Positions 1,116 to 24,171 of a stretch of 55,545 nt of DNA are shown in pieces. The first letter of the stretch is position 1; every line of letters begins with the position of its first letter. This DNA comes from a bacterium (lineage in GTDB: Bacteria > Patescibacteriota > Patescibacteriia > JBDRHN01): assembly GCA_043816765.1 (NCBI GenBank), contig JBDRHN010000065.1, forward strand, positions 1 to 55,545, read 5' to 3'. Both the position numbers and the translations under genes were made by a program. The notes beneath the pieces were generated by a model. It did no database searches. It saw only the letters and a program-made list of their open reading frames with translations, and was not told the origin of the DNA.

Positions 1116-1175
1116 AGTAACCTCAGAGTTTGAGTAAAAATAATTTGCCCAATTTCGCTCATATTCACGCCATCT

Positions 1176-1229
1176 TTGTATAAAAAAATTTTCAAAATAA
1201 CTTGTTATTCTTCAAATTTTTTTATACAA
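1176..1229. repeat. AT-only 54-nt near-perfect palindrome in the hisS-hisG spacer
   Basis: TTGTATAAAAAAATTT (1176-1191) pairs with AAATTTTTTTATACAA (1214-1229). The inner AATAAC/GTTATT also pair. Confidence 0.7.
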
Positions 1230-1261
1230 ATCTGACGCAAATCTGAACGAAATTGAACAAG

Positions 1262-2548: not shown

Positions 2549-2586
2549 ATTGCTTTATTATGATAAAGTATTAAAAATAAAAAAAA

Positions 2587-2886
2587 TTATCTTTTTTTGT
2601 TCATCCTTTCTGTCATTATTTTATAGCCTCCCATGCCATGTTTCAGCCATTTGGAAATTCTGGCAACCGTTGTTGAGCTAAGCCCGGTTTCTTTTTCTAT
2701 CTTTATATAAGTCTCGCCGTCCACAAGCATCTTAACCGCCTTCCATCTGTTGCCAAATTCTATCAGTTCTGTTTTTGTCAACAAGTCGCGAAAAAATTTT
2801 TTAGCTTCGCTGGTATTTTTTAAGGTTAAAATAGCTTCAAGCAATTCTTTTGTGTTTTGGTTGTCCCAATTGTTCGTATTATTCAT
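2587..2886 (-). CDS. TrpR-related YerC/YecD family DNA-binding protein
   Basis: 99 aa. Contains LTKTELIEFGNRW and the helix-turn-helix ETGLSSTTVARISKWLKHG typical of YerC/YecD. Confidence 0.7.
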   Translation of the reverse strand: MNNTNNWDNQNTKELLEAILTLKNTSEAKKFFRDLLTKTELIEFGNRWKAVKMLVDGETYIKIEKETGLSSTTVARISKWLKHGMGGYKIMTERMNKKR

Positions 2887-2998
2887 AATGTTGCTTTAAT
2901 TAAGTAAAGTATAGCGGATGTTTGTGGGTTTGTCAAGTATTTTTTTTACTCATGGTATGGTGTATACGAAAATTATTGAAAATATTAATATGGATAAG

Positions 2999-4045
2999 AG
3001 ACTTGTTGCGCAATAGCAAATATTCTCCAAAAATGTTAAAATTAGTGTAGGTTAATTCACTAAGCTTACATTAATATGATTAATATCAAATATGCGTTTA
3101 AGTCAAATAGAGTAATGAAAGCATTAACAGGCATGACCATTTATGAATTTAATAGCCTTCTTATTAGTTTCGAAAATATATTTGAAACTAATAAGAAGAT
3201 TATTAACAAGCAAAAGAAACGCAAAAGAAAAGAAGGGGCTGGTCTCAAACATACCTTGAATACGATTGAGAAAAAATTATTTTTCATTTTGTTTTGCGCA
3301 AAATGTTATCCAACATTAGATTTAGCAGGTTTTTATTTTGGTGTCGATCGCGCGCAACCTTTTAGGCGGGTAAATGTATTATTGCCAATTTTAGAAAAAA
3401 CACTTGGGCATGAGGTTGTGTTGCCAGATAGATTAATAAAGGACATTGAAGAATTTCAACAAAAATATCCTGAAATTAAAGATATTTTTATCGATGGCAC
3501 AGAGCGACCAATCCAAAGACCCAAAAATGGCAAAAGGCAGAAAAAAAATTATTCTGGCAAAAAGAAAACTCATACAAGAAAGAATATAGTTATTTCAGAT
3601 GAAAACAGAAAAATCATAGCATTAACACCAACCAAATCAGGAAAAACCCATGACAAAAAAATGTTAGACAAAAGTGGAATTACAAACAAAATACCTTCAA
3701 AAATTGCTCAATGGTTTGATACAGGATTTATTGGGGAAAATTCAAATATTATTATGATGCCCAAGAAAAAGCCGAAAGGTAAAATATTGTCATATGAAGA
3801 AAAACAAGAAAACAGAACTATTTCTGGAATTCGGATATTGTCAGAACATGCGATAAATGGACCCAAGAGGTTTAGAATTATTAGTGATAAATTTAGAAAA
3901 CAGTTAGCGACTTTGGATGATAAGTTTATGTTGATTACTTGCGGGCTTTGGAATTACCATTTAAGACTGGCAACGTAAAATTGTAAGGAGCTGGATTTGA
4001 TATATCAAATTTTTATTTTTAAGTTTGCTATTGCGCAACAAGTCT
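2999..4045 (+). mobile_element. Insertion sequence (about 1047 bp) with 22-nt perfect terminal inverted repeats and one transposase ORF
   Basis: AGACTTGTTGCGCAATAGCAAA at 2999-3020 and its exact reverse complement at 4024-4045 bracket ORF 3076..3978. No clear target-site duplication was seen. Confidence 0.85.
3076..3978 (+). CDS. DDE transposase, DDE_Tnp_4 (PIF/Harbinger-like, IS5-superfamily) type
   Basis: 300 aa with FIDGTERPIQRP, YSGKKKTHTRKN, GKTHDKK, WFDTGF and SGIRILSEHAI. The N-terminal region is HTH-like. Confidence 0.8.
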   Translation: MINIKYAFKSNRVMKALTGMTIYEFNSLLISFENIFETNKKIINKQKKRKRKEGAGLKHTLNTIEKKLFFILFCAKCYPTLDLAGFYFGVDRAQPFRRVNVLLPILEKTLGHEVVLPDRLIKDIEEFQQKYPEIKDIFIDGTERPIQRPKNGKRQKKNYSGKKKTHTRKNIVISDENRKIIALTPTKSGKTHDKKMLDKSGITNKIPSKIAQWFDTGFIGENSNIIMMPKKKPKGKILSYEEKQENRTISGIRILSEHAINGPKRFRIISDKFRKQLATLDDKFMLITCGLWNYHLRLAT

Positions 4046-4187
4046 ACTGAATCAGTTAACACTGTCCAGTTTAATTATGCCAATAAATTAGCAAATATAG
4101 AAACAAAATCAACCTCATCCAATTAAAATAACAAACATTCAAAAAATACAAAATGACTTTAAAAAACTCAAATTCAAATTAAAAACT

Positions 4188-4622
4188 CTACTTAAATCCG
4201 TATTCCATATACGTTTCACCAAGCATTTTAGCCTTCAATGCGGCTGCAACATGCAACACTGTATTTTTTGGCAACTTGTCTATCTCAAACCATTCAACGC
4301 CAGCGCATTTTTCAGACTCTAAATTTTTTAAATCACCATTCCATTTATAACAAACAAAGAAAAAATATAATCGTTCTCCTCTTTCGTCTTGATGGTGCAT
4401 AACCAAAGGCTCACCAATATTGTTTATATCTACCTCGGCATTAACTTCTTCTTTGGATTCTCGCACAGTTGCTTTTTTTACTGATTCTCCAGCATCAAGC
4501 CTGCCCGCAGGGACAGACCACTCTCCGTCTTTAAAACCAGTACCCGCCCGTTGCATTAAAAATACTTTTTCATCTTTTATCAAAAAAAGATGAACTGCTA
4601 TTGGTAATATTGCATGACTCAT
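4188..4622 (-). CDS. NUDIX hydrolase
   Basis: Nudix box GRLDAGESVKKATVRESKEEVN (GX5EX7REUXEEXGU). Confidence 0.85.
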   Translation of the reverse strand: MSHAILPIAVHLFLIKDEKVFLMQRAGTGFKDGEWSVPAGRLDAGESVKKATVRESKEEVNAEVDINNIGEPLVMHHQDERGERLYFFFVCYKWNGDLKNLESEKCAGVEWFEIDKLPKNTVLHVAAALKAKMLGETYMEYGFK

Positions 4623-4736
4623 AATTAGTTATTGTGTAAAAACTCGTTTTTAACGTAAAATTAAGTTTGGGGCTTTGCTAATGTTAGCATCATTACGCAG
4701 AACTACGCAGAATTTGAAATTAATTTTATTCTAATT

Positions 4737-7664
4737 TCACCTTCCACAACACTTCTTATACTTCTTGCCACTCCCACAAGGACACTCATCATTGCGCCCA
4801 ACCTTCTCCCCAGACTCATTGCGGACTTTTTTACTAATAATAGGCTGGTCGTTTTCAGCTGAACCTTGATCATCCATCGGACTTCCGCCGGAGTTTGAAG
4901 ATCTTATGCTTTGCGTCATACTTTTCATCATAGAAGAAAGTTTGCTCGCGACCTTTTCCGGCGCAGAAAGATTTATATTTTGACGTTGCAATAAACTTGC
5001 GGTTTCTCTTTGGACAATGCCAACTTTATAAATACTATAAACAATCTGCCTTTGAATATTATTTTGCAACTCATTAAAAAGTATATAACCCTCTTTTTTG
5101 TATTCCACCAAAGGATCTCTCTGCCCATAGCCTTGCAAACCGATTCCAACACGCAAATGCTGCATATTATCCAGATGCTCAACCCAGAATTGATCAATGG
5201 TTCTAAGCGCCATACCTCTTTCTATGTCACGCAAATCACCCCCGCCTTCTTTAATATTTTGTTCTAATTTTTGATACGCTTTTTTTGCCAAATCAACAAG
5301 ATAATTAATAATCTCGGTTCTGGCTTGAGCGTCTTGCGCTCTGTCCCCTGCTTTTAATTTTATCTCTTTCATTTCAACTCTGTCTTTTTCGTCAATAGAA
5401 AAAATCGTATGGACAACTTCATAAATCTCATTAATATTCCAGCTGTTTTCGTCTTCAACGGCAGTATGAAAAGAAACAACCTGCTCAATTTCACTCTCAA
5501 TCATCGCCAGCATTATATCTTTGCTTTTATCGCTTTTTTCCAAAACTTCGTTTCGCTTGCGATAAATCGTCTCGCGATGTTTGTTCATAACATCGTCATA
5601 CTCAACCAATCTTTTTCGCGTGTCAAAATTGTGCCCCTCCACCTTTTTCTGCGCCGATTCAATAGAACTGCTGATGAGTTTATTCTCAATAGGCATATCA
5701 TCGGGAACGCCGAGCTTTTCCATGACATTTTTCATTCTGTCTGACCCAAAAATACGCATAAGATCATCTTCCATACAGACATAAAACTGCGATGAACCGG
5801 GATCTCCTTGCCGTCCGCTGCGTCCGCGCAACTGATTATCTATACGACGCGCCTCATGCCTCTCGCTCCCAATAATACACAACCCCCCAAGCTCTTTAAT
5901 CTTTGCCTGCTCCTCTAAATATTTACTATATTCATCATCATCCTTACTTTCAACTTTCAACTTTTGACTTTCAACTTCGTTCTGACTTTTGACTTTTGAC
6001 TTTTGACTTTTGACTTGCGGCGGATCGCCGCCAAGTTTAATATCAACTCCGCGTCCAGCCATATTGGTAGCCAAAGTCACAGCGCCGATTTTACCAGCCT
6101 GAGAAACAATTTGCGCTTCTTTCAAATGGTGCTTTGCGTTCAACAACTGATGCGGCACGCCGTTTTTCTCAAGCAAACGGCTAAGTATCTCATTTTTTTC
6201 AATGGAAATCGTACCTATTAAAACAGGTTGCCCCTTTTCATGGCGGCGTTTTACTTCATCGACAATCGCCTGAAATTTTCCGCTTTCATTTTTATAAATT
6301 AAATCATGTTTATCTTGTCTGACGACGGGTTGATTTGTCGGAACAGCAACAACAACCAAACCGTAAATTTTATAAAACTCTTCAGACTCAGTAAGCGCCG
6401 TTCCTGTCATTCCTGATAATTTTTTATATATTCTAAATAAATTCTGAAAAGAAATAGTGGCGAGTGTCTGCGACTCCTGTTTTATTTCAACGTCTTCGCC
6501 TCGTATATGCTCTTTTGCCTCAATCGCCTGATGAATACCTTCAGAATACCTGCGGCCAGGCATCATTCTTCCTGTAAACTCGTCAATGATAATCACCTCG
6601 CCGTCTTTGGCAATATAATCTTTATCTTTTGTAAATAAAGCCTTTGCCTTAAGCGCTGATTCTAAATGAAAAATAGTTTTAATGTCATTCTCTTTCCATG
6701 GATCTCTTCCCAATATTTTAGAAATATTCTCAACCCCCCTATCTGTAAAAGTCGCCGAATGCATTTTTTCGTCTTTATTGTAATCCCCCATATTAGGATC
6801 ATTTTCATCAATCTCTTGAGCTTGATAAAACGGACTTACGGTTTTTTTCTTTTCAGTCGTATCCTCTTTAAAATTTTCTACCAATTTCGCGTATTGATAA
6901 TACATTTCCGAAGAATCTTCCGACGGAGCTGAAATAATCAAAGGGGTTCTCGCCTCATCTATTAAAATAGAGTCAACCTCGTCAACAATGGCGTAATTAA
7001 ACGGCCGTTGAACCTTCTGTTCCGGAAGAGCAACCATATTATCGCGCAAATAATCAAAACCAAACTCGTTATTTGTTCCGTAAGTAATATCAACATCATA
7101 CGCCTCTTTGCGCGAGATTGGACGCAAATGAGCCAGTCTCAAGTCTTCCTGATTTTCATCATTATATTCAGGATCATAAATAAAAGCCTGCTCGTGTATA
7201 ATACAGCTTGTGCTCACGCCCAACAAATGATTGGCAGCCCCATTCCATCCCGCATCGCGCCTCGCCAAATAGTCGTTCACCGTAATCAAATGAGCTCCTT
7301 TTCCGCTCAAACTATTCAAATACAAAGACAAAGCCGCCACGTGCGTTTTACCCTCGCCTGTTTTCATTTCAGCAATCTGACCTTTATGCAAAACAATTCC
7401 TCCGACCAACTGCACATCATAATGCCGAACATTTATCGCTCTTTTGCTCGCCTCTCTCACAAGCGCAAAAGCTCTCGGCAAAATGTCGTCCAATGTTTTT
7501 CCTATTTTTAATTCCTCTTTTAATTTACCCGTTTCCAGCTTTAATTCGTCATTAGATAATTTAGATATCCCCTCCTCCAAACCATTAATTTCCGCGGCAA
7601 TAGGCTCTATTTTTTTCAACTCTTTTTTATTGGGATCGCCAAAAACCTTTTTATATATAGACAT
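4737..7664 (-). CDS. secA: preprotein translocase ATPase SecA
   Basis: 975 aa with [57 protein letters not shown] and the C-terminal zinc motif [14 protein letters not shown]. Confidence 0.97.
5984..6017 (-). repeat. Tandem heptanucleotide GACTTTT x4.9 inside the secA coding sequence
   Basis: Units at 5984, 5991, 5998, 6005 and a partial one at 6012. On the gene strand they encode [12 protein letters not shown] in the variable insert after ...DIKLGG. Confidence 0.9.
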
Positions 7665-7746
7665 ATTTTTAGATATGATTTAATAATTACAGTAAAAGCA
7701 TTTTAACTCAAAAAATGGGAGTTGGCAAGAGAGCATATTTTAATAT

Positions 7747-7876
7747 TTCTAATTTCCAATTTTCAATTCTCAATTTTCAATAAATTGATCAATTTTACAA
7801 TTTCCAAACGGTTCTATTTTTTGAAAATTTAGTAATTGAAAATTGATTGAAAATTAGAAATTGAAAATTGAAAATT
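7747..7876. repeat. Long imperfect AT-rich hairpin built from AATTTTCA words (secA upstream spacer)
   Basis: The left arm CAATTTTCAATTCTCAATTTTCAAT is matched by the reverse complement of TTGAAAATTAGAAATTGAAAATTG on the right arm. Confidence 0.6.
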
Positions 7877-7902
7877 ATTTTTCTCGTCTCTATAAACTGC
7901 AA

Positions 7903-8364
7903 TCAATAATAATTCAACCCCTTCCCCCTCAACTCCCTCTTTATCTCCTTATAGTCCGAAATAAACTTCCCCACCAACGCCCAAAACCGAGAAGAATGAT
8001 TAAACTCTTTGAGGTGGCACAACTCATGAACAATAATATAATCCGCCGCGCGAGGAGGAAGCGTTAAAATTTTATAATTAAAACTCAAATTGCCATTCTT
8101 TGAACAGCTCCCCCACCTCGTCTTTTGATTTCTAATATTTATTTTACTAAATTTAAAATCCCGAGTCGCATTCCAAAACTCAATTCTTGTTTTTACAAAT
8201 TTATAAGCATCCCCCCTGCTTTTTAAAAAATCTTTATGCGAACTTTTTGGTAAATCGTTTTTAAAATCTTTAAAATGCTCCAACTTTGAAAGAATCCAAT
8301 CTGCTTTTTTAATTATAAAATTTTCAACTTTTTTCTCGCTTACCCGCGCAGGTTTAGTCGCCAC
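7903..8364 (-). CDS. YgjP/DUF45 (M48-like, HExxH) metal-dependent hydrolase; the ORF as listed lacks its N-terminal ~35 codons
   Basis: RWGSCS...IIVHELCHLKEFNHS. In-frame upstream codons read ITINNKDIEYILQTSKKAKNIRLSIYPDRGLV (the typical family N-terminus), but the ATG at 8470 is out of frame across an A11 run. Confidence 0.75.
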   Translation of the reverse strand: MATKPARVSEKKVENFIIKKADWILSKLEHFKDFKNDLPKSSHKDFLKSRGDAYKFVKTRIEFWNATRDFKFSKINIRNQKTRWGSCSKNGNLSFNYKILTLPPRAADYIIVHELCHLKEFNHSSRFWALVGKFISDYKEIKRELRGKGLNYY

Positions 8365-8478
8365 CAGTCCGCGGTCAGGATAAATAGAAAGACGAATATT
8401 CTTCGCCTTCTTGCTTGTTTGTAAAATATATTCAATGTCTTTATTATTTATTGTAATTTTTTTTTTTCATAAAATAAT

Positions 8479-8611
8479 TAGACACAGATTAACACTGACC
8501 CTTCGGGCGCAGAAAAACACAGATTTTAAATAAGCTTTAAGAAGCTATTGTAAAACAAAAAACAATATCTGTATTAATCTGTGCTTTAGTCTGTGTTCAT
8601 CTGTGTCCTAT
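8479..8611. repeat. Word hairpin (CACAGAT / ATCTGTG words)
   Basis: TAGACACAGATTAACAC (about 8479-8495) pairs with GTGTTCATCTGTGTCCTA (about 8594-8611). Further CACAGAT/ATCTGTG copies lie inside. Confidence 0.6.
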
Positions 8612-8617
8612 ATTTAA

Positions 8618-9481
8618 TCACAAAATAACACTATCATCCCCACCACCGGCAGTTTCCTCTTTCAAAATATAAACATCCCGCCTAAAATCATCTTGCCCCA
8701 CCAACTCCGCCTCGCCGTTTATAATTTTCTCCATTGGCCTGCAAGCAAAACACCCCTGCTTTGGGCAAGACATTTTATTCAACTGACGCGCAAGTTTTAT
8801 TCTTCTCGCTATCTCTAAAACTTTGTTCTTAGACTCCTCAACATCCGGCAACTCAACTTCAGTGCACCTGTTGTCAGTTTCCAGATACCAATAACTCGCT
8901 TTTGCAACATTCCTTTTTTGACAATTCCGCGCCAAAAGATTATATATCGGAAGTTGTAATGAATCATCATTCTCCTTTTTTTTGCCAGTTTTAAAATCAA
9001 TAATATGCACGTTGTCTGTCTCCTGCAAATATTCAAGCCAGTCAATCTTTCCGCACAAAATCATATTCTCTTTTTCAGACAACCAAAAAAACGGCAAATC
9101 ATTATTAATTTTTACAGACAACCTCTCAATCGGTCCTGGATTATTATAAACCCTCTTCAACATCTCCTCCCCCCGTCTTTTATATTTATACTCGCTCTCC
9201 GGATCCAAAAAACCCCCTTTTTTACCCGACACCTTTTGCCACTCTTCGTCAAATTTTGTTATCAAAGATTTCGCAAAACGTTGCTCTTTTGGCAAGACAG
9301 AAAGACTTTCCAAAACATTGTGCACGCTTTGTCCCAAAGCAAGCGGCGGATTCATCAAATTAATCTTGTGTCCCGTTTTCGGGTCTTTATAAATATTTTT
9401 TAAATAATAAGCGCGAGGGCATTGTAAAAAATCGCTTATTGAAGAATGCGAAAGCCAAAGGGCTGTGTATTTGTCAGGCAT
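8618..9481 (-). CDS. PD-(D/E)XK nuclease, Cas4/AddB-like with a putative Fe-S cysteine cluster
   Basis: 287 aa with GKIDWLEY...IIDFKTGKK, QLPIYNLL, one N-terminal Cys (QCPRAY) and a C-terminal CPKQGCFAC. Confidence 0.7.
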   Translation of the reverse strand: MPDKYTALWLSHSSISDFLQCPRAYYLKNIYKDPKTGHKINLMNPPLALGQSVHNVLESLSVLPKEQRFAKSLITKFDEEWQKVSGKKGGFLDPESEYKYKRRGEEMLKRVYNNPGPIERLSVKINNDLPFFWLSEKENMILCGKIDWLEYLQETDNVHIIDFKTGKKKENDDSLQLPIYNLLARNCQKRNVAKASYWYLETDNRCTEVELPDVEESKNKVLEIARRIKLARQLNKMSCPKQGCFACRPMEKIINGEAELVGQDDFRRDVYILKEETAGGGDDSVIL

Positions 9482-9552
9482 ACTTTATAAATTTTTAATT
9501 TTTAATTTAAAATTTTAAAATAATTTTTAATGTTTTAATTTTTAATTTTTTT

Positions 9553-9612
9553 ACTTGCACCGTTCTGTTGGAATCTCTCGCTACTTGCGCTGCTCCGTTG
9601 GAGTCTCTCGCT
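9553..9612. repeat. Tandem 30-nt direct repeat (about 80 percent identical)
   Basis: ACTTGCACCGTTCTGTTGGAATCTCTCGCT followed by ACTTGCGCTGCTCCGTTGGAGTCTCTCGCT. Confidence 0.8.
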
Positions 9613-9691
9613 GTTGGGTGATAGAAATAATTTTAGATCAATTTATTATTTGTCATTAAATATAATTCTTAAGTCCAGCCAAGAGGACTCC

Positions 9692-9729
9692 AACGAGGTT
9701 TTGCAACCACAACGAGGTTTTGCAACCAC
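9692..9729. repeat. Perfect tandem duplication of a 19-nt unit
   Basis: AACGAGGTTTTGCAACCAC x2. Each unit contains a GGTT-TTGC-AACC mini-hairpin. Confidence 0.85.
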
Positions 9730-9813
9730 ACGATATTTTTCACCTATAACCTTTGTATTTTTTCCTTTCATTAACCTTCCCTCCATTATGCCCCCCGCCA
9801 AACAAAAATGAAA

Positions 9814-9845
9814 ATAAAAAACCGCCAAATTGGCGGTTTTTTTTA
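9814..9845 (-). terminator. Rho-independent (bidirectional) terminator after the giant surface-protein gene
   Basis: A-run, ACCGCCA-AAT-TGGCGGT (9821-9837), T-run. It starts 5 nt beyond the stop codon at 9850-9852. Confidence 0.8.
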
Positions 9846-9849
9846 ACAT

Positions 9850-12800
9850 TTACCTCGTCGCTCCGCTATAAGCTATCGCTCTTACAATATCCCAATCGGT
9901 TGCTGATGCGGGGTTGTATTTGAAAATAGCTTTAAAGAAATTGGCCGCAATCTTTTCGTTGCCCAGATTTCTATCAGACGGTCTGAGACCATAAGCGATT
10001 ACAGTCACTGCCGCGTTATCATTTGGGTTAGCCATATTGGCTTCTTTTTTGTAGATTTTTTTAAATTCTTCTTTAGCTTTAACCTCTGCCGCAGAATTAG
10101 TTTCACTAGGCCATCTGCCGTTGGCAATTTTCACCACGTCTTCCCACTCGGCTTGGCTTGACGGCAATTTTCCAAAAGCGCTTTTATAGGAATTAATCAC
10201 GCCAGCCCGCTCTCCCACTCCAAGAGTTTGAGTTGTCTTGGTTCCGTAGACAACAAAATTAGTAATGGCGTAAATATTATTTGATGACAAACCGACTGCG
10301 CCGCTGGTCAATTTTGAAGTGTAATCTTTGTAGCCGTCGCTTTCAGCCTTGAAGTCGCGCTTTGAATCTGTATTAGCAAGCGTTAAAACAACATTCCCGT
10401 CGTAAACATCATTGGCGTCTTGCGCTATATCCGCCAACTGAACTTCACGCTCATCAAACTCAACGCCCAAAACTTTCACTTCATATTTGTCAAGAATTTC
10501 GTCAAGGATTTGTTTAAATTTTATTTCAGGTTTTACTTCAATGATTACCGGTTTGGCGCGATTGGAGTTATTATCAAAAGCGACCAAGCCGTAATAATAA
10601 TTCTTGCCCTCTTCAATTTCGGTGTCAATATATTGTTTGTCTTTGCCTTGGTATATCTCTTTTCCCTTGGTCTTTAGCTGTGTTAATGTCATACTCCCGT
10701 CAATAGTTTCTAAACTTTTGACCAACACAACATCTCTAAAATCAGAATCGCTCGGATTTGTCCAGCTGATAACAATCTGCTTGCCATCTCTTTTTGCTTG
10801 AAAATCCTTTGGTTGAGATGGAGGAGTTCTATCTATAAAAATTCCTCCGCCTCCTCCGCTTGACGGCTGAACTGCGATTACGGTTTGGGTGTAGGTGATA
10901 AATTTGGTAAAATGTTTTGTCCAGATGATTAAATCAGAACCGACCTTAATTTTACAATCGCCGTCAGCTGTCAAAGCATCGCCGACCGATTGAGTGTCTG
11001 ACCCGCAAGTTTGAGTAATTCGGGTAAATGTTCCGCTTCTGGAATAACCTGCATATCTGCCAGCTTGATTTTTTAATTCAATCCTTACCGCTTTGTCAAA
11101 ATTTAATTTGACATCGTCAAATCCTATTTCAATGACTGAAGAAACGTTTGCGGTCTTGCCTGAATCGGGCGTGACAGTAACACTGGAATTTTCTTTAACT
11201 TGCGGAAAATTGATCTCTCCGGTCCAGTTTGAGTCGGCTGAAATTTGTCCTGCTGGTATCGCAACATTTACATCGCCGATACTGGTGGCGGATTGAATAG
11301 TGATATTTGTTTGGAGGTCAACGTTTTTGGTGTCGGTGCCGCTTAATAATGCTGAAACGTTTAATGTCCCGTTGACGACCGAAGATGGCGCGATTATAGT
11401 AGAACCAGCTGGCGCGTTACTTCCGATTAATACTTCTGGCGCGGAAGTATCAAGACTTACCTCATCAGTTAGAACGGTTTGACTCTCTGCGACAGCGAAC
11501 ACTAAAATTGTTCGCTTAATCTCCGTTGCCTTATTCTCAGAAGAGTCGGCGGCATTATATGTAATAACATAAGTTCCGACTGTTGCTGTGTCAACTGTAT
11601 CGCCTCCGATATTGATCTTTACTTCAGTATCAAGATTATCTGTGGCAACAGCTCGCTCGGTATATATTGTGCCTTGATATATATTCATATCGCCGCCGTT
11701 TAGGGTAATTACTGGGGCAATGCTATCCTCTGTTATGGTAAAAACAGTTGAACTCACGCTTTCATTTCCCGCCAAATCCACGGCTATTGCTATAAAATTA
11801 TTGTCAGAATTTTGCGCAAGATTAACTTCTATTGAATAATCAGTTTCTCCTGTTCCTAATTGTTGGCTTCCAGCTAATTCGGTTCCCCTGTAAATTTCAA
11901 CCAAAGAATTATTTTCTGCTGTCCCAGTTATAGAATATGTGTCAGAATTTAAGATTATAGTTTCTGCTGGATTAACTATCGCTGGACTGTTTGGAGCAGT
12001 TAAATCTATTGTCCATGTTTCTGAAATTTCATCTGACCAATTTCCCGCATCATCTCTGCCTTTCACAAAAAGCGTATGCGCGCCGTTTGCTAAACCTGAT
12101 AAAACTATATTTGTGTCAATAGATATTTCTGCGCCATAACCAGCACCATCTAAATTATATTTATAAAAAACAATGCCGTCTCCGCTCACTGCAATATTGG
12201 CAGTTGTTTGATTGGTTGGGTTATTTGGCGTTCCCGAAAGAGTAGCAGTTGGAGGAATTGTGTCAGGAATTTCAGTCACTGTAATTGTTATTTCTTCAAA
12301 AGCAACTGCGTCTCCGTCGCTCACTTCAAAGCGAACATTTGAATATATTTCAGCTTGTCCAATATTAGGTGTCCAAGAAAATGTTTTGGTACCAGTGTCA
12401 AAATTAGCGCCTTCTGGCAAATTGCTGGCAGAATAAATTAAGTCGTCTCCGTCAACGTCAGTTGCTGAAATAGTGAATGTTAAAGCTTCACCTTCAACAA
12501 CTGTTTTATTGCCGATTAAATTCATTACTGGGGGGTTGTTTGGTGTTTCCGCTATGCTAAAACTAATTTCAAAATCGTCTGTGTTGTAGGTGTCTAGTTC
12601 ATCTTTACATTTAACATAATAAACATAACTTTGCCCGTCCACCAAATTAGTAATAGTTGCAGAATGAGCCGCCCCTCCCCCTGTCGCTAAAAATGTATTA
12701 GTCATTAAATGATATTCTATATTTTGTGTTACAGAATATTTACAAGTGGCATTTTCGTTTGTTGTTAAAGAGATTGAAGTTTGGGTTGTACCTGATGATA

Positions 12801-13686
12801 ATTGTCCAGTTGGCAAACCATCGCTACGAATTGGAGCGGTTGTGTCAACAATTATATAATGGTCAAGATACTCATCAAATATATTTCCAGCCTCATCTTT
12901 TATTTTTACTTTTATTTTATAATCTCCATCAACTAGTGTTCCTGATGACAATGAACCATCCCAAGTTTCTACACACTGTGAATTTCCATCGCAATCATCA
13001 CTAGGAGAATAATATTTATATATTCCATCATCATCCACATTTTCTATTTTCAACGAAACCCAGTTATCAATATCCTCATCTGCATTTAATATAATTTCAA
13101 CCGTTTCGCTTGAATTTGGATTAAAGGTAGTATTGCTTTCAGCACCACTTAAAGTATAACTGGTAATTGTCGGAGGAGTTGTATCATTTAAAGCAATGAT
13201 TCCGTCGGTAAAAATGGTGGAAATGGAATTACCAGAACTATTTCCTATTACAGAAGAAGAATCAAAAGTAATATTAGTAGTTGTGGTATCTCCAGAAATT
13301 ACCTTAAAATTTAAATTTAACAATATATCCTCGCTATCAAAAGATATCGGATCCGCTCCAATTGAAGCAAACCAAAGAATTGTAATCTGATTTCCAGTTT
13401 GGCTAACAGTTGCTGGTGGCAACTGATCTAATGTGTGGTCAGTATATTCAAGAAAGTTTAAATCATAATTAACATATATAGTCACGCTACCAACATCCGA
13501 AAAAGAATTGCCAGCGGTAATTGGAATACTAATTGATTCGTTATTATTCGCAGTCGCATTTCCTATTATCAATTCCTCTCCAACAGCTTGTGTGACTGGA
13601 ACAAAAATTAAATTACAAGTAATCATTGACATTACAAGCATATAGCTTATAATTTTTTTGAATTTGTTTAATAATCTTTTTTTCAT
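9850..13686 (-). CDS. Giant secreted surface protein: signal/anchor, cohesin-like domain, multiple Ig-like/cadherin-like/DUF5011-like repeats, FN3, C-terminal repeat domain
   Basis: 1278 aa. N-terminal hydrophobic segment. Residues about 38-166 fit the cohesin pattern (SISIPITAGN..VTIYVNYD..LEY...ITILWFAS...LLNLNFKV). PPVMNLIGNKTVVEGEALTFTISATDVDGDDL is a putative-Ig/cadherin-like repeat. PPSQPKDFQA...YYYGLVAFD is FN3-like. Confidence 0.75.
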   Translation of the reverse strand: MKKRLLNKFKKIISYMLVMSMITCNLIFVPVTQAVGEELIIGNATANNNESISIPITAGNSFSDVGSVTIYVNYDLNFLEYTDHTLDQLPPATVSQTGNQITILWFASIGADPISFDSEDILLNLNFKVISGDTTTTNITFDSSSVIGNSSGNSISTIFTDGIIALNDTTPPTITSYTLSGAESNTTFNPNSSETVEIILNADEDIDNWVSLKIENVDDDGIYKYYSPSDDCDGNSQCVETWDGSLSSGTLVDGDYKIKVKIKDEAGNIFDEYLDHYIIVDTTAPIRSDGLPTGQLSSGTTQTSISLTTNENATCKYSVTQNIEYHLMTNTFLATGGGAAHSATITNLVDGQSYVYYVKCKDELDTYNTDDFEISFSIAETPNNPPVMNLIGNKTVVEGEALTFTISATDVDGDDLIYSASNLPEGANFDTGTKTFSWTPNIGQAEIYSNVRFEVSDGDAVAFEEITITVTEIPDTIPPTATLSGTPNNPTNQTTANIAVSGDGIVFYKYNLDGAGYGAEISIDTNIVLSGLANGAHTLFVKGRDDAGNWSDEISETWTIDLTAPNSPAIVNPAETIILNSDTYSITGTAENNSLVEIYRGTELAGSQQLGTGETDYSIEVNLAQNSDNNFIAIAVDLAGNESVSSTVFTITEDSIAPVITLNGGDMNIYQGTIYTERAVATDNLDTEVKINIGGDTVDTATVGTYVITYNAADSSENKATEIKRTILVFAVAESQTVLTDEVSLDTSAPEVLIGSNAPAGSTIIAPSSVVNGTLNVSALLSGTDTKNVDLQTNITIQSATSIGDVNVAIPAGQISADSNWTGEINFPQVKENSSVTVTPDSGKTANVSSVIEIGFDDVKLNFDKAVRIELKNQAGRYAGYSRSGTFTRITQTCGSDTQSVGDALTADGDCKIKVGSDLIIWTKHFTKFITYTQTVIAVQPSSGGGGGIFIDRTPPSQPKDFQAKRDGKQIVISWTNPSDSDFRDVVLVKSLETIDGSMTLTQLKTKGKEIYQGKDKQYIDTEIEEGKNYYYGLVAFDNNSNRAKPVIIEVKPEIKFKQILDEILDKYEVKVLGVEFDEREVQLADIAQDANDVYDGNVVLTLANTDSKRDFKAESDGYKDYTSKLTSGAVGLSSNNIYAITNFVVYGTKTTQTLGVGERAGVINSYKSAFGKLPSSQAEWEDVVKIANGRWPSETNSAAEVKAKEEFKKIYKKEANMANPNDNAAVTVIAYGLRPSDRNLGNEKIAANFFKAIFKYNPASATDWDIVRAIAYSGATR

Positions 13687-13724
13687 AAGTTTAATTTAAA
13701 GTTAAATTTTTAATATATATAAAT

Positions 13725-16250
13725 TTAATTATTGTTCCATGAATTATTTACATCCCCCATCTTAACACCTGTAAAATTTTGATTAGTCATATCAGCTGTT
13801 AAATCAGTATATGTCTTGGACGGCTCTTCTGTCAAATAATTTTCTTCAGTCAAAACAGTATCGGAAGAATAAAACTTCCAATCACCGCTTGGCAATTCGC
13901 TATCAAACCCAACAATATATCTAACTATTTTTGTTAAATCAAGTCCATTAATTTTTCCTGTTTCATCAGCATCAGATGCAACTATTTTAAATATAGAATC
14001 AAATGTTTCAAGCCCTGTTATATGACGAACTATTTTTGTCAGATCAAGACCATTGACTTCAGTTGAAGTAATAGCATCATCTTTCTCAATTTTAACAACA
14101 TAATTCTCTCCATTTTCTAATCCTGTAAATTCATAATAACCACTTGCATCAGTTATAGCAACAGCTATTTGCGCGCCAACATTATTTTCCAAAATTACAG
14201 TAGAATTTGGAACCGCTTTTATTCCATCATAATATTTTACTGTTCCCGAGATTGTAAAATTTTCCGAAGTCAAAGAGTTCAAGGCGTTAAAAGCGTTGAT
14301 TCTTTTGCCACTAACTGTCTTGCCCAATAAATCAACGTTATCATCGCCTGTTGTTAAAATTACATTTTTAACTTCGCTATAAGTCAATTCCGGACGATAC
14401 CCCCAAATCAATCCTGCCAGTCCCGCAACGTGCGGGGCGACCATTGAGGTGCCACTTTTATAACCATACTGTTCATCTGATCCATCGGAATATTTTGTAA
14501 TTTTTATGTCATCAATTGTACATCCTAAATTATAATCAATTGACGAATCAGTTATCCAATCAAAACTAAACTTAAAATCACTTGATAGATAATTTGAAAT
14601 ATCCTCACTATAATTTTTATAATAACCACTATGACCATCGTCTGTCCATTGTTTACCACCATCTAAAAAAATTTTAAATTCATCATATTTATTAGAATCA
14701 TGCCAAAATCCATTAGAATAGTAATAGGTATTTATATAATCATCATAAGTAATGCTAATTGGAGTATCACACCAAATAGTAAAACTTAAAGAGGCACTGC
14801 TGATATTAGAATCCGATAAATCCAATGCATCACTTTGCAATAACCAAGTATGTGCATCTGAATCATATGGATATGAATTATCAGAATAAACTACCTTGGA
14901 AGAACCATCATTATTTACAACCCAATGACTTGTTGTGTCTCCTCCGTGACTAACGATATAAGTATCCTCCTCAAAATTTTCTGAAAATAAATCAACGCCT
15001 GCTACAGTACTATAAATACCAACTCCAGGTGCGCCGACATCAACAGACGTCGCTCCATAATTGGAAAATGAAGCCAACTCATCATTTTGATCAGTCGCTG
15101 CTACTGAGATGATATTATCTAAATCATAATCAGACGGATAATAATGTGTGCCATCATTGTTGTTTGCATCGTTTCCGGCAGCGGCTATAAATATACCACC
15201 CGCATCTCTAAAACGACCTATTGCATCATATTCAGCTTGGGTAGAATTAGAGCCACCGAAACTAGCGTTAATAACTTTAACTCCATTGTGTATCGCAAAA
15301 TCAATCGCTTTTACAACATCACCAGTTACAGCGCCTTTGTAATTGCCAACTTTCAATGCCATTAATTTGACATTCCAACTAATTCCAGACACACCAATAC
15401 CATTATCCCCTTCTGCACCAATAGTTCCAGCCACATGGGTTCCGTGCCCATGATCATCAATTGGGTTATTATCGTTGTTTGTATAATCCCAACCATGATA
15501 AGGGCAAGATACATTTTGATTATTTTCATTTTTACAACCAGTAGCACCATCCCACATATTGTTTATCAAATCCGGATGATTGTACGCTATACCACTATCC
15601 AAAACAGCTACAACAACCGAAGCAGATCCAGTTGAAATATCCCAAGCCTCTGGCGCGTCAATATCAACATCATTTGTGTTATGCAATCCCCATAATTTAT
15701 CAAAATCAAGATCGTTGGGGGTTGTTGATGTCCATGGATGAATATAATTAGGCTCAACATATTCAACGTCTGGATCATTTTTTAGTCTGTCAACCATCTC
15801 TTCAACAGACTCATCACTTTTAGTTTTCAAAACCGAAATATTGCTTTTTCTAATATCCTCTTTTTTGTCCAAATTTTTACTCTCAGCAAACAACCGCGAT
15901 TTTTTAATACCTGCAGATTGTCGTAAATTTATTTTTTGATTTTTAAATTTGACCAAAACTTCACCTTGAACATAACTTTGTTTGACAGTATTATTAGCCT
16001 TGGTCGTTGGCAAAAATTTATTAAAATTATCTTTTGGGCTTTTTGTCGGCTGATTTTTTAATTTTTTATCAACCAAATTACGCTCGACAGCGGATAATGC
16101 TTTTTGTTGAGATTGCAAACGGCTTAACACCTCATTTTCATCTGACGAGACCGCCTCGCCAGCTTTCGCTCTAGTCATATTGGCGGAACTAATCGGCGCA
16201 AGCCCAAAAAGATAAACCACTACCAAAATAGTTGTAAATATTCTTTTCAT
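13725..16250 (-). CDS. Secreted S8 (subtilisin-family) serine peptidase with I9 propeptide, inserted beta-rich domain, CarboxypepD_reg-like domain and C-terminal dockerin-like repeats
   Basis: 841 aa. Signal peptide; catalytic D218 (VAVLDSG), H269 (HGHGTHVAG) and S602 (SGTSMVAPH). Duplicated NGLDLTKIVR[HY]I.G segments, the second preceded by DADETGKI. Confidence 0.9.
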   Translation of the reverse strand: MKRIFTTILVVVYLFGLAPISSANMTRAKAGEAVSSDENEVLSRLQSQQKALSAVERNLVDKKLKNQPTKSPKDNFNKFLPTTKANNTVKQSYVQGEVLVKFKNQKINLRQSAGIKKSRLFAESKNLDKKEDIRKSNISVLKTKSDESVEEMVDRLKNDPDVEYVEPNYIHPWTSTTPNDLDFDKLWGLHNTNDVDIDAPEAWDISTGSASVVVAVLDSGIAYNHPDLINNMWDGATGCKNENNQNVSCPYHGWDYTNNDNNPIDDHGHGTHVAGTIGAEGDNGIGVSGISWNVKLMALKVGNYKGAVTGDVVKAIDFAIHNGVKVINASFGGSNSTQAEYDAIGRFRDAGGIFIAAAGNDANNNDGTHYYPSDYDLDNIISVAATDQNDELASFSNYGATSVDVGAPGVGIYSTVAGVDLFSENFEEDTYIVSHGGDTTSHWVVNNDGSSKVVYSDNSYPYDSDAHTWLLQSDALDLSDSNISSASLSFTIWCDTPISITYDDYINTYYYSNGFWHDSNKYDEFKIFLDGGKQWTDDGHSGYYKNYSEDISNYLSSDFKFSFDWITDSSIDYNLGCTIDDIKITKYSDGSDEQYGYKSGTSMVAPHVAGLAGLIWGYRPELTYSEVKNVILTTGDDNVDLLGKTVSGKRINAFNALNSLTSENFTISGTVKYYDGIKAVPNSTVILENNVGAQIAVAITDASGYYEFTGLENGENYVVKIEKDDAITSTEVNGLDLTKIVRHITGLETFDSIFKIVASDADETGKINGLDLTKIVRYIVGFDSELPSGDWKFYSSDTVLTEENYLTEEPSKTYTDLTADMTNQNFTGVKMGDVNNSWNNN

Positions 16251-16275
16251 AATTTATCATTTAAAATTCCCGTCG

Positions 16276-16347
16276 CAGCCCGTAGGGGAATCGAACCCCT
16301 ATTACATGGATGAGAACCATGCGTCCTAACCATTAGACGAACGGGCC
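16276..16347 (-). tRNA. tRNA-Glu(CUC): tRNA-Glu (anticodon CUC)
   Basis: The reverse complement GGCCCGTTCGTCTAATGGTTAGGACGCATGGTTCTCATCCATGTAATAGGGGTTCGATTCCCCTACGGGCTG folds as a cloverleaf. Anticodon loop TTCTCAT, T-loop TTCGATT, no encoded CCA. Confidence 0.9.
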
Positions 16348-21659: not shown

Positions 21660-22106
21660 CTAGATACTTTCCCCTTCTCCCAAACTCTCACCAAGTCTTT
21701 CCGCTATCTCATCGCTCTGATTTTCTGTCTCTTTTTTATAATCCTCCCATTTATCTTCATCCCAAATTTCAATCCTGTTATACAAACCCGCAATCACCGC
21801 TTTTCTGCTAAGCCCGCTATATTTTCGCAAATACTCAGGCAAAATAATTCTCCCCTGCTTATCTAGCTCAACCTCCATCGCGCCAGCCAACATTAAACGA
21901 GAATACGCTCTAGTATTTTTTTGGCTAACGGGCAGTTTCGCAATCTTTTGCGCAATCGTTTCCCACTCAGATTTTGTATAAAGAAACAAACATTCATCAA
22001 GCCCCCTAGTAACCACAGCGCCATTTGCCAATTCATTACGAAATTTAACCGGTATGGCCAACCGACCTTTTTCATCCATAGAATGATTGTATTCTCCTAA
22101 AAACAT
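21660..22106 (-). CDS. mraZ: Transcriptional regulator MraZ; start moved to MFLGEYNHS
   Basis: Two DxxxR SpoVT/AbrB-like repeats (DEKGRLAIP, DKQGRIILP). First gene of the dcw block. Confidence 0.9.
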   Translation of the reverse strand: MFLGEYNHSMDEKGRLAIPVKFRNELANGAVVTRGLDECLFLYTKSEWETIAQKIAKLPVSQKNTRAYSRLMLAGAMEVELDKQGRIILPEYLRKYSGLSRKAVIAGLYNRIEIWDEDKWEDYKKETENQSDEIAERLGESLGEGESI

Positions 22107-22116
22107 AAATTTATTG

Positions 22117-22163
22117 GCGGGATTTGCAGAGATGAGGCAATGCCTCGTCTCTGCAAATCCCGC
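22117..22163. repeat. 23-bp-stem hairpin 11 nt upstream of the mraZ ATG
   Basis: GCGGGATTTGCAGAGATGAGGCA / TGCCTCGTCTCTGCAAATCCCGC, with one G-U type mismatch. Confidence 0.85.
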
Positions 22164-22166
22164 AAT

Positions 22167-22215
22167 TTTATCCACAGAAAACATTACTTATCCCCACTTT
22201 TATCCACTTTTCACC
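22167..22215 (-). promoter_or_regulatory. Putative MraZ operator: phased AAAGTGG direct repeats upstream of mraZ
   Basis: The gene strand reads AAGGTGAAAAGTGGATAAAAGTGGGGATAAG, with two AAAGTGG boxes exactly 10 nt apart, plus a GTGGATAAA box 22 nt downstream. This resembles published MraZ boxes (AAAGTG[G/T] / TGGGN repeats). Confidence 0.45.
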
Positions 22216-22330
22216 TTATAAATCCATTATAAACCATTTTCATTTAAAAAACAACCACTTCAAATGGTTGTCTAATAATATTATTTTTAGCTAAAATTAG
22301 TAAAAAATAATTTATTTGTGTTTAAGCTGG

Positions 22331-22400
22331 GGATAAAATAGGTGCTAACGCACGCATCGTGGCTGGTTCCCAGCACAGCTGGGAACCAGCGGATAAAATA
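22331..22400. repeat. GC-hairpin element (family copy 2, short form) flanked by a 10-nt direct repeat
   Basis: GGTGCTAACGCACGCATCGTG followed by a perfect 13-bp stem GCTGGTTCCCAGC-ACA-GCTGGGAACCAGC (22362-22390). GGATAAAATA occurs at 22331-22340 and 22391-22400. Confidence 0.8.
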
Positions 22401-22501
22401 TTTATTTAAAATTGTCAGAGTTAAGCTTTTGTTTAAAACTATTAGCAGTTATTAAACTTATTAATTATATACGATTACGATGTGCTTATTAATCCTACCA
22501 A

Positions 22502-23956
22502 TCACTCCCCCCTCCCCCTCAAATTCAAAACCTCCCCAACAAGCCCAACCCTCACTCCCCCAATCAAAAACATCACCCCAAAATACACGGCAACCGCCAA
22601 CGGAATAATAATAAATAGATTCAACCGCGACATAAAATATAGAAACAAAGCCATCACCCCGCTGGCAACTATAGACTTAAGCAAAACAGTAAACTTCGGC
22701 CAACGTTTAACTGTTTTTACAACCATTAGAAAAGACAAAACAGTAATCAAAGTTTCAGAATAAAGAGTTACACCCACAGCTCCCCAATAAGAATACAAAG
22801 GGATAAAAATAAAATAACCAAAAAGCGAAGTAACCGCCGCAAATAAATATCCCCGCATCATACTCTTCTGCTTATCAATAGCAACAACGCTATGGCTGAA
22901 AACATTACCAATATAAATCATCCCAAGAGCGATAATCAAAACGCGAAGAACAGAGCCGGAACCCTCAAACTCTTTACCAGCTATCAAAACCATAATCGGC
23001 TTTGATAAAAAAATAACCCCGACAACTAAAGGCGCCGCGATAATTGTAAGCGCGTCAAACCCCTTTTGCAAAATAGACATAAAACGTTCCTTGTTATTTT
23101 CCGCCCACGCCAAAGACAAAATCGGCAAAAGCAAACCGACAAACAAATATGGAAAAACAGTTAGAACATCAATCGCGCGATAAGCCGCCCCGTAAATTCC
23201 AACAACATCCTGCTTGTAATACAAAGATAAAATTAAAATATCCGCCTTTAGATAAACCAAATTAAAAATAATAGAAAGAGAAAGCGGCCACGATCTCTTG
23301 AAAATTTCTTTCCAAACGGAAAGCTGAACCAAAAAACGCACCCGAACAAATTTACGCGACCAATAAAATAGTAAAACAAAATGAATCAAATGCGACAAAA
23401 CCAAAAACCCCAAAACGCCGTATAAATTCCAATTCTTTATAGTTACCAGATAAACCCCAGCCAAAAAAGACGCCTTTGACACAACATCAGAAATAGCCGG
23501 TTTGTTCATTTCTATATTTTTCTGAAAAACGCTTTGAAGAATCTGAACCAAAGAGATACATAAAAAACCGACACAGCAAATCAAAACGCCATATTTTACC
23601 TGCGCTGGATACGGAAAAAACCAAACAACAATCGGAGCAATACATAACAAAACAAAAACAGAAACCAAACGCAAAGTAAAAATATTACTGAAAATATCAT
23701 TTGTCTTTTGTTGATGAACAACTTCATCTTTATCTGTAATTTCAGAAATTAGCTGAACTGACATTAGATTCAAACCGAGGTCAGCCAAAATACTGAACAA
23801 CTGCAAAAAAGTAAAAATCGTAACATAATTTCCAAAACCTTCTACGCCCAAATAGCGAGTAATTAAACCTAAACTAATCAAACTAAAAAACAGACCGATT
23901 CCCCTTCCGAGAATCTGCCAAAAAGTATTTTTAGCGATTTTATGCGTTAAACTCAT
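22502..23956 (-). CDS. MOP-superfamily oligosaccharide/polysaccharide flippase (Wzx-like)
   Basis: 484 aa, about 12-14 predicted TM segments, N-terminus KNTFWQILGRGIGLFFSL typical of the family. Confidence 0.7.
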   Translation of the reverse strand: MSLTHKIAKNTFWQILGRGIGLFFSLISLGLITRYLGVEGFGNYVTIFTFLQLFSILADLGLNLMSVQLISEITDKDEVVHQQKTNDIFSNIFTLRLVSVFVLLCIAPIVVWFFPYPAQVKYGVLICCVGFLCISLVQILQSVFQKNIEMNKPAISDVVSKASFLAGVYLVTIKNWNLYGVLGFLVLSHLIHFVLLFYWSRKFVRVRFLVQLSVWKEIFKRSWPLSLSIIFNLVYLKADILILSLYYKQDVVGIYGAAYRAIDVLTVFPYLFVGLLLPILSLAWAENNKERFMSILQKGFDALTIIAAPLVVGVIFLSKPIMVLIAGKEFEGSGSVLRVLIIALGMIYIGNVFSHSVVAIDKQKSMMRGYLFAAVTSLFGYFIFIPLYSYWGAVGVTLYSETLITVLSFLMVVKTVKRWPKFTVLLKSIVASGVMALFLYFMSRLNLFIIIPLAVAVYFGVMFLIGGVRVGLVGEVLNLRGRGE

Positions 23957-24171
23957 AAAAATTAGTAAAGCTATTATACAACAATATCCTAAAAAATAAA
24001 ATTCCCATCCTAAAACGGAATTTTATCAACAACTCATCTTTTAGCATCATCGCCTTTTCTTTTTCTCTTTTGGTTTCCGCCAAATCATACGCAAAATTAT
24101 TTTTCGCTTGCAAAATAACATGTCCATACTTTTCCTTGTTTAAATCTCTCATTTAATTTGATATATAACCA

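Follow-up and report, generated by a model that had tools for sequence, protein, structure and literature searches.

Does a bacterium of the Candidate Phyla Radiation (CPR) encode, in two neighbouring genes, a secreted protease and the surface stalk onto which it docks? The question is raised by contig JBDRHN010000065.1 of assembly GCA_043816765.1 (Patescibacteriota), analysed here as one whole contig of 55,545 bp with a GC content of ~35% and called the window, in which the gene of an S8 subtilase of 841 residues is followed on the minus strand by that of a giant surface protein of 1278 residues, hereafter the scaffold. An initial annotation, made from the letters alone, had read a duplicated dockerin at the C-terminus of the protease and a cohesin near the N-terminus of the scaffold, and had proposed that the two co-transcribed genes encode a matched pair. 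Both open reading frames are as it described them (Table 1). From comparative sequence evidence we consider it likely that the dockerin and the cohesin interact and so hold the protease on the stalk, as a two-gene, non-cellulosomal cohesin-dockerin system of a CPR bacterium. The ultra-small CPR bacteria, or Patescibacteria, depend on others for their metabolism, and little is understood of the way in which they contact and exploit their hosts; a stalk with a docked protease would be a concrete, testable piece of the CPR-host interface.

Exploring the C-terminus of the protease, we found two segments of 22 residues (window 14013-14078 and 13908-13973) that are identical to each other at 14 of 22 positions and have the stretch NGLDLTKIVR in common, i.e. 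a tandem duplication lying inside the interval 13902-14081 to which it had been assigned. As an isolated segment the dockerin matched Pfam Dockerin_1 (PF00404) at 23.6 bits against a cutoff of 22.9, and the corresponding fragment of a sister locus, described below, scored 21.4 bits. A phmmer search of PDB sequences returned solved dockerins, the best match being 8X39, a "serine protease" double dockerin (E=3e-5), followed by 4FL4 (E=1.5e-4) and CelD (E=4e-3), while one reversed and three shuffled copies of the segment matched no dockerin or cohesin family. The two-segment DxDxxGxIxxxD architecture that had been claimed holds for segment 2, DADETGKINGLD, which fits the canonical loop, and fails for segment 1; the calcium-coordinating pattern (Asp or Asn at positions 1, 3 and 5 and Asp at position 12) is present in segment 2 only. 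The degeneracy of segment 1 is also found in the consensus of the family. Because loop 1 has no ligand at position 3 and the family consensus is equally degenerate, the window dockerin is a divergent subtype, probably with one calcium site. Homologues found by phmmer usually cover all 120 residues of the dockerin and the stretch behind it, indicating that the dockerin and its 60-residue tail form one module.

At the N-terminus of the scaffold, the isolated 151-residue segment matched Pfam Cohesin (PF00963) at 48.2 bits (E=1.6e-12) and residues 1-300 scored 45.1 bits, the cutoff being 24.1. The match covers positions 3-137 of the 139 in the profile and places the cohesin at residues 39-164, almost exactly where it had been predicted (residues 38-166; 13189-13575). 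One reversed and five shuffled copies gave no match, indicating that the match depends on the order of the residues. In the Pfam scan of the full-length 1278-residue protein, which listed several immunoglobulin (Ig)-like families, the cohesin was missing, and it became visible only in fragments of up to 300 residues; the precomputed annotations of the scaffold and of two relatives, P0027 and P0110, have no cohesin entry. This absence from long scans is a filter artefact, and the database annotation of cohesins on long repeat proteins of biased composition is probably incomplete. Because routine Pfam scans of full-length, repeat-rich proteins overlook their cohesins, the number of such systems is probably underestimated. 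The profile search that the initial annotation had named as its own check gave the cohesin 45-48 bits, and gave the dockerin a score just above the cutoff in isolation and below it within the full-length protein. A word-indexed homologue search with residues 1-180 of the scaffold found nothing. A profile built from seven cohesin sequences did match cohesins in PDB, and was discounted as not independent, since the remaining cohesins in it, verified beforehand, dominate the profile.

The gene pair recurs in a sister genome, as had been suggested for inspection. In assembly GCA_964412905.1 (locus L030) the 3' end of a protease gene lies directly upstream of the gene of scaffold P0027. The C-terminus of the sister protease is 73% identical to that of the window over 254 residues and 79% identical in the dockerin, with NGLDLTKIVR unchanged in both segments, and its CarboxypepD_reg-like domain scored 40.3 bits. 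The cohesin of P0027 is 67% identical to that of the window and scored 42.6 bits with Pfam. Comparison of the two scaffolds revealed that the cohesin and the module next to it are best conserved (67-68%), the remaining stalk is rearranged and the C-terminal domain is wholly different. About 115 nt around the intergenic spacer (window ~13650-13765; L030 765-880) are ~95% identical, synonymous sites included, versus ~75% further upstream, which suggests that this region is constrained as a regulatory or translational-coupling element. The start of the sister scaffold is probably an upstream ATG (MKKMLLNK…) and not the called start. Genes downstream of the pair in L030 are unrelated to those of the window.

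To see which proteins carry the module elsewhere, residues 722-841 of the protease were compared exhaustively (phmmer) with 1.84 billion representative proteins. The 120-residue module gave 4936 matches at E<=1e-3 and 439 at E<=1e-10. Among the top 149 matches the module is terminal in 44, which are the closest (45-65% identity), and is followed by a further 190-350 residues in 77. The first 48 of those 77 proteins, taken without selection, were scanned with Pfam: a Cohesin follows the module in 33 of them (best E=4.5e-17), and 23 end in a sorting tail of the type IX secretion system (T9SS). A cohesin profile made from the window and P0027 (A4) likewise detects module-fused cohesins, e.g. in P0329 (7.8e-10) and P0301 (1.2e-7). 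Judged by these matches, many proteins join the dockerin and cohesin subtypes of the window in the same order; in the window itself the unit is cut precisely where one domain ends and the next begins. Thirty-eight proteins ending in the module were also inspected; a CarboxypepD_reg-like domain stands just before it in 32, and their cargo is varied, S8 proteases being the commonest (12/38) next to NosD/beta-helix, fn3, DUF5018, BNR and ice-binding-like domains.

A third arrangement is found in P0022, a CPR protein of 1623 residues. Its residues 6-681 align with residues 1-666 of the protease (43% identity, E=5e-138), through the signal peptide, prodomain, catalytic domain and a 169-residue insert, and the alignment ends where the CarboxypepD_reg-dockerin module starts. 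Behind this part P0022 continues with sequence that matches scaffold stalk modules, and 51% identity links the FN3 and C-terminal alpha domains of P0022 to scaffold residues 952-1278. Queries with the cohesin and the dockerin found nothing in P0022, even with the HMMER filters off. By this domain layout, a peptide bond in P0022 does the job that we propose for the dockerin and cohesin in the window. The conserved adjacency in the sister genome, the recurrent dockerin-then-cohesin fusions (33/48) and the covalent variant P0022 are independent comparative lines, and all three support the matched pair that the initial annotation had put forward; taken together, the natural fused, split and covalent variants would show from genomes, with unusual clarity, which module binds which.

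Other relatives show the same modules in further settings. A scan of metagenome contigs returned mostly the generic S8 motif M[VA]APHVAG, the sole informative match being L040 (Ga0209187_1000396). It encodes giant proteins in tandem (open reading frames 2-4960 and 6896-11149), each of more than 1400 residues, both of which have a prealbumin-like domain, a dockerin and an "IKMGDVNN" tail near the C-terminus, followed in at least one by a cohesin-like domain and a T9SS tail. Some of the 150 best relatives of the module carry two to four copies of it. P0110 (L031 10001-12535) has an N-terminal cohesin (Pfam 28.1 bits) and the same alpha C-terminal domain as the scaffold, and no dockerin gene was found in the 10 kb flanking it on each side. 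Stalks tipped with a cohesin may thus recur among CPR bacteria, the genes of their partners lying at other loci.

Several observations weigh against a docked protease-stalk pair. The Dockerin_1 match is marginal, residues 730-779 scoring 19.6 bits in the full-length protein, below the cutoff, and the loop of segment 1, DAITSTEVNGLD (D-A-I-T-S-T-E-V-N-G-L-D), is degenerate, position 3 being Ile and position 6 Thr. Neither phmmer with the cohesin nor the two-sequence profile (window and P0027) reached a solved cohesin among PDB sequences; hhalign of the same two sequences with four verified cohesins gave a probability of 0.8%, the profiles being too shallow; and an AlphaFold2 (AF2) model of the cohesin, made from an alignment of seven sequences only, had a predicted local distance difference test (pLDDT) of 39.7, with beta strands only by DSSP, and is unusable. 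Since the routes through solved-structure sequences, profile-profile comparison and AF2 gave no confirmation, it is the Pfam hidden Markov model that carries the cohesin call. Just one sister locus with the protease-scaffold pair was found, and in its scaffold, P0027, the alpha domain is missing (3% identity over residues 941-1278). Finally, a promoter-like site at 13835-13806, within the 3' end of the protease gene and with 11 of 12 matches, makes a separate transcription of gene 2 possible.

How far do these observations favour another explanation? We think it unlikely that the dockerin and cohesin are a dyad serving as a structural or self-association unit, i.e. as an intramolecular clasp or head-to-tail oligomeriser of giant surface proteins, of which the window would hold a split version building a surface layer or fibre, with the protease as incidental cargo or maturation factor. 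Such a unit would agree with the single canonical calcium loop, with the repeated copies in some proteins and with the finding that in most relatives, which are T9SS-type surface proteins of very large size, both modules are adjacent in one polypeptide toward its C-terminal end; however, in the closest relatives the module terminates a variety of enzymes and no cohesin follows it, as would be expected of a recruiting tag, and P0022 shows the end product to be a protease on a stalk. A dyad would still predict that the window domains bind each other, and it differs in purpose, not in interaction. Less probable again is that both modules are real and are not mutual partners, so that the dockerin uses another cohesin or a non-protein ligand, the cohesin recruits other dockerin-tagged proteins, and adjacency merely reflects a neighbourhood of surface-protein genes. 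The window shows 55 kb of the genome, in which no further dockerin or cohesin was found; P0110, with its cohesin, the same C-terminal domain and no dockerin gene nearby, indicates that cohesins can exist without an adjacent partner; and cross-specificity is common in known systems (PMC12484212). Yet the adjacency is conserved with a nearly invariant spacer (37/38 identical), whereas the genes flanking the pair differ, the dockerin-then-cohesin fusions keep the same order, the window cohesin groups with cohesins fused to this type of dockerin, and P0022 fuses the same two proteins.

We regard it as very improbable that no docking occurs at all, the "dockerin" being a calcium-binding, EF-hand-like insertion in the prealbumin-like domain and the "cohesin" one more beta-sandwich of the stalk, so that an ordinary secreted protease would lie beside an ordinary adhesin. 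The borderline Dockerin_1 scores (19.6 to 23.6 bits), the degenerate first loop, the cohesin fold left without confirmation by AF2, PDB sequence search or hhalign, and the missing cohesin in the full-length scan all point in that direction. They stand against a cohesin score of about twice the Pfam cutoff over the whole profile with clean shuffled controls, a dockerin segment that matches solved dockerins specifically, a co-occurrence of the modules across hundreds of proteins that chance does not explain, and P0022, in which precisely the dockerin and the cohesin are replaced with a peptide bond.

In the mechanism that we propose, both proteins would be exported by Sec and their signal peptides cleaved (between …ISSA and N in the protease, between …VTQA and VG in the scaffold), and the prodomain would be removed autocatalytically, as in other subtilases. 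The protease dockerin would then bind the scaffold cohesin 1:1, probably in a calcium-dependent manner via the canonical loop 2; a dual binding mode, as known from type I dockerins, may be possible, since the NGLDLTKIVR helix is the same in both segments. The stalk, built from about nine beta-sandwich modules, would be fixed to the envelope by the C-terminal alpha domain, in analogy with the S-layer homology (SLH) domains of anchoring scaffoldins, which is the weakest step of this mechanism. The active protease would thus sit at the far tip of the stalk, a few tens of nm from the cell, where it might degrade extracellular or host-surface proteins for a supply of peptides, or process surface proteins of the cell itself. 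The role in host-surface attack or nutrient acquisition that the initial annotation had envisaged is speculation.

The stalk and its C-terminus are the parts by which the scaffold would reach the envelope. The Ig-like stalk of ~770 residues holds the Pfam modules He_PIG (386-471), Y_Y_Y (503-560), Big_6 (577-648) and Bact_surface_Ig-like (660-729), plus unassigned modules. A search with the full-length scaffold was dominated by He_PIG/Ig repeat proteins, and its useful yield was P0022, P0027 and P0110. For the alpha domain (~214 residues) we found at least 407 homologues, in which the domain always stands at the extreme C-terminus of proteins with a signal peptide, mostly of 370-420 residues; those with a named source belong almost entirely to Patescibacteria, Parcubacteria or Falkowbacteria. 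Its AF2 model has a pLDDT of 90.1, a predicted template modelling score of 0.80 and 11 helices, and no structural match was found in PDB and BFVD. Invariant aromatic and charged residues include E120-R121, W142, D144, R196, R200 and W226-D227 (domain numbering). Neither SLH repeats nor an LPXTG or sortase motif was detected in the scaffold, which ends …AYSGATR, and no cohesin was found when we looked for one on the ~400-residue CPR proteins that share the alpha domain. As an orphan fold that is modelled with confidence and is shared, at the C-terminus, by hundreds of CPR proteins predicted to be secreted, the alpha domain is a candidate for a new envelope anchor or binding domain. Since P0027 has no alpha domain, the domain is not essential to the gene pair, and its anchoring role is put forward by analogy. 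The names of the alpha-domain homologues together with the groundwater source support a CPR origin of the window, and are consistent with the small-genome, episymbiotic lineage that had been guessed from the sequence.

Non-cellulosomal cohesin and dockerin modules are reportedly scattered in non-cellulolytic bacteria and archaea, and by Peer et al. 2009 (FEMS Microbiol Lett 291:1; cited in PMC6487960 and PMC8542988) they are said to be present frequently in low copy number, to sit in many cases on proteases or surface proteins, and at times to occur together in a single protein. The closest precedent for the window is the S8 protease of C. thermocellum, whose double dockerin, according to a 2024 study summarised in PMC12484212, binds the cohesin of cell-bound ScaD, and for which surface anchoring was proposed. 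Like the window protease, it is a subtilisin-like S8 enzyme with dockerin at the C-terminus and the cohesin of an anchoring scaffoldin as partner; the likeness extends to sequence, 8X39 being the best PDB match of the window dockerin. In contrast, the window dockerin is single and of another subtype (prealbumin-like domain, dockerin and 60-residue tail, with a degenerate loop 1), its putative partner, encoded next door, bears one cohesin, there is no cellulosome, carbohydrate-active enzyme (CAZyme) or SLH domain, and the host is a CPR bacterium, not a Firmicute. As the same source describes, an X-dockerin dyad of a cysteine peptidase of R. flavefaciens binds the cohesin of ScaE (Levy-Assaraf et al. 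2013, cited in PMC12484212), again a peptidase tethered to a single-cohesin protein, which is itself anchored to the cell wall. That system differs in peptidase class and dockerin type, and ScaE is short, sortase-anchored and part of an elaborate cellulosome, whereas the window cohesin stands at the N-terminal tip of a stalk of ~1100 residues.

For Ca. Stygibacter (Cloacimonadota) a cellulosome-like complex has been predicted from genomes only (PMC8542988). It resembles the window in its dockerin-tagged S8/S53 and C25 peptidases and in a cohesin scaffoldin with a C-terminal domain for attachment to the surface of the cell itself; its scaffoldin, however, has tandem cohesins, carbohydrate-binding modules (CBMs), a C-terminal domain of T9SS type and many cargo enzymes including glycosidases (PMC8542988), compared with a single cohesin, an orphan alpha domain and the absence of CBMs in the window system. 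The anchoring scaffoldins SdbA, OlpB and ScaD of C. thermocellum share the order signal peptide, cohesin(s), linker or stalk, and C-terminal domain, the latter being an envelope-binding SLH domain there, whereas no SLH, LPXTG or other known anchor was detected in the window scaffold. With one cohesin, no CBM and no CAZyme, and with the protease as the sole dockerin protein of the 55-kb window, the window system works like the connector of a cellulosome and is not a cellulosome; it would be a minimal 1:1 cohesin-dockerin system outside any cellulosome, encoded as an operon.

Our literature search, which cannot prove absence, returned no report of cohesin-dockerin systems in CPR/Patescibacteria, and no description of the dyad of dockerin and tail followed by a cohesin or of the triad of split, fused and covalent architectures. 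A wider reading, to which we give some credence while doubting it, is that "prealbumin-like domain, dockerin and tail, then cohesin" is an ancient, widespread and undescribed connector, and that CPR bacteria have made of it a modular surface-display system. On this tentative view the connector would exist in three states that evolution can interchange, as a cis fusion in giant T9SS proteins, as split genes in the window and as a peptide bond in P0022, and the orphan alpha domain of more than 400 secreted CPR proteins would be a new kind of envelope anchor. If that were true, ultra-small episymbionts would mount exchangeable enzymes, proteases first, on the tips of stalks to attack or feed on host surfaces.

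The features of the locus are collected in Table 1. The identity of the gene 1 product as an S8 protease, claimed at the outset, was borne out by the profile match, the catalytic residues in D-H-S order (D218 in DSG, H269 in HGTH, S602 in GTSM) and the oxyanion Asn (N360 in AAGN). The 169-residue insert of its catalytic domain, which gave a weak match to an InhA-like MAM domain (E=0.02), is conserved in P0022 and, by alignment coverage, also in the distant Nitrospirota-type relatives L001-L003, and may be a substrate-binding beta-sandwich. A search of genome contigs with the protease returned distant S8 relatives only (36-45% identity), none of them from CPR, and an exact look-up of both window proteins found neither on record.

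Table 1. Features of the protease-scaffold locus (window coordinates; residue numbers refer to the protein named)
Feature	Coordinates	Strand	Basis and remarks
Gene 1, secreted S8 subtilase with C-terminal dockerin tag, 841 residues	13725..16250	-	Open reading frame; Pfam Peptidase_S8 E=2.8e-54, Fervidolysin_NPro-like E=8e-14
Protease signal peptide, residues 1-23 (MKRIFTTILVVVYLFGLAPISSA)	16182..16250	-	Read from sequence; kept in P0022; cleavage predicted
Protease prodomain, residues 85-168, Fervidolysin-like	15747..15998	-	Pfam PF22148, 52.2 bits
S8 catalytic domain, residues 211-655	14286..15620	-	Pfam PF00082 in two stretches; motifs located
169-residue insert in S8 domain, residues 417-585	14496-15002	-	Between oxyanion Asn N360 and catalytic Ser S602
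CarboxypepD_reg-like (prealbumin-like) beta-sandwich, residues 666-726	14073..14255	-	Directly before dockerin; Pfam 32.0 bits, just below 32.3 cutoff
Dockerin, residues 725-781 (segment 1 725-746, linker, segment 2 760-781)	13908..14078	-	Pfam Dockerin_1; PDB dockerin matches
60-residue tail after dockerin (…SGDWKFYSS…GVKMGDVNNSWNNN), conserved	13728..13907	-	Part of 120-residue module; 32% identical in L040, 72% in sister locus
Intergenic spacer, 38 nt	13687..13724	-	37/38 identical in sister locus L030
Gene 2, cohesin-bearing stalk ("scaffoldin-like") protein, 1278 residues	9850..13686	-	Open reading frame; Pfam
Scaffold signal peptide, residues 1-34 (…FVPVTQA before VG)	13585..13686	-	Read from sequence; 65% identical in P0027; cleavage predicted
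Single N-terminal cohesin, residues 39-164	13195..13572	-	Pfam PF00963
Ig-like beta-sandwich stalk, residues 175-940	10867..13164	-	Pfam; modules recur, in shuffled order, in P0027 and P0022
Gly5 linker (residues 941-950) and FN3-like module (951-1052)	10531..10866	-	Read from sequence; aligned with P0022 and P0110
All-alpha C-terminal domain, CPR-specific, residues 1065-1278	9853..10494	-	No Pfam family; candidate envelope anchor
Intrinsic-terminator-like hairpin, 12-bp stem then T run	9816..9842	-	8 nt past scaffold stop codon
tRNA-Glu, anticodon CTC	16275..16347	-	ARAGORN; Rfam tRNA 61.5 bits; 24 nt upstream of protease start

The order of genes on the minus strand is mraZ, mraW, a small open reading frame, a penicillin-binding protein (PBP) transpeptidase, Mur ligase, tRNA-Glu(CTC), the protease, the spacer and the scaffold, and beyond the scaffold gene and its terminator lie genes of a PD-(D/E)XK nuclease, a YgjP-like peptidase and SecA. 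A mobile-element or phage origin was rejected, since the neighbours are housekeeping genes (mraZ-mraW-PBP-Mur ligase … SecA) and such chromosomal surroundings indicate that the locus is not a mobile element. Near-identical DNA is present in groundwater and biofilm metagenomes of at least four studies. An independent groundwater contig crosses the junction of the two genes with no difference from window 13508-13828; given this exact match, the junction is not an assembly artefact and a chimera was rejected. Both genes lie on the same strand with a 38-nt gap, no convincing terminator was found between them, and a strong one follows gene 2, an operon-like layout from which we infer that protease and scaffold are co-transcribed. 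The tRNA-Glu gene, with a promoter-like site just upstream of it (16379-16350), could form one transcription unit with the two genes, the tRNA first. An Rfam scan of the window found nothing besides two tRNAs. On the plus strand, opposite to both genes, a perfect sigma-70 consensus (TTGACA, 16 nt, TATAAT) at 13626-13653 sits in the 5' end of the scaffold gene and points toward the 3' end of the protease gene; it may be a chance occurrence in AT-rich DNA or an antisense promoter. Elsewhere in the window, the AT skew rises to +0.257 at 22001-24000 against slightly negative values in the rest, which is probably an effect of codon or amino-acid composition, because the interval overlaps the gene of a Polysacc_synt-family membrane protein (22502-23956, minus strand).

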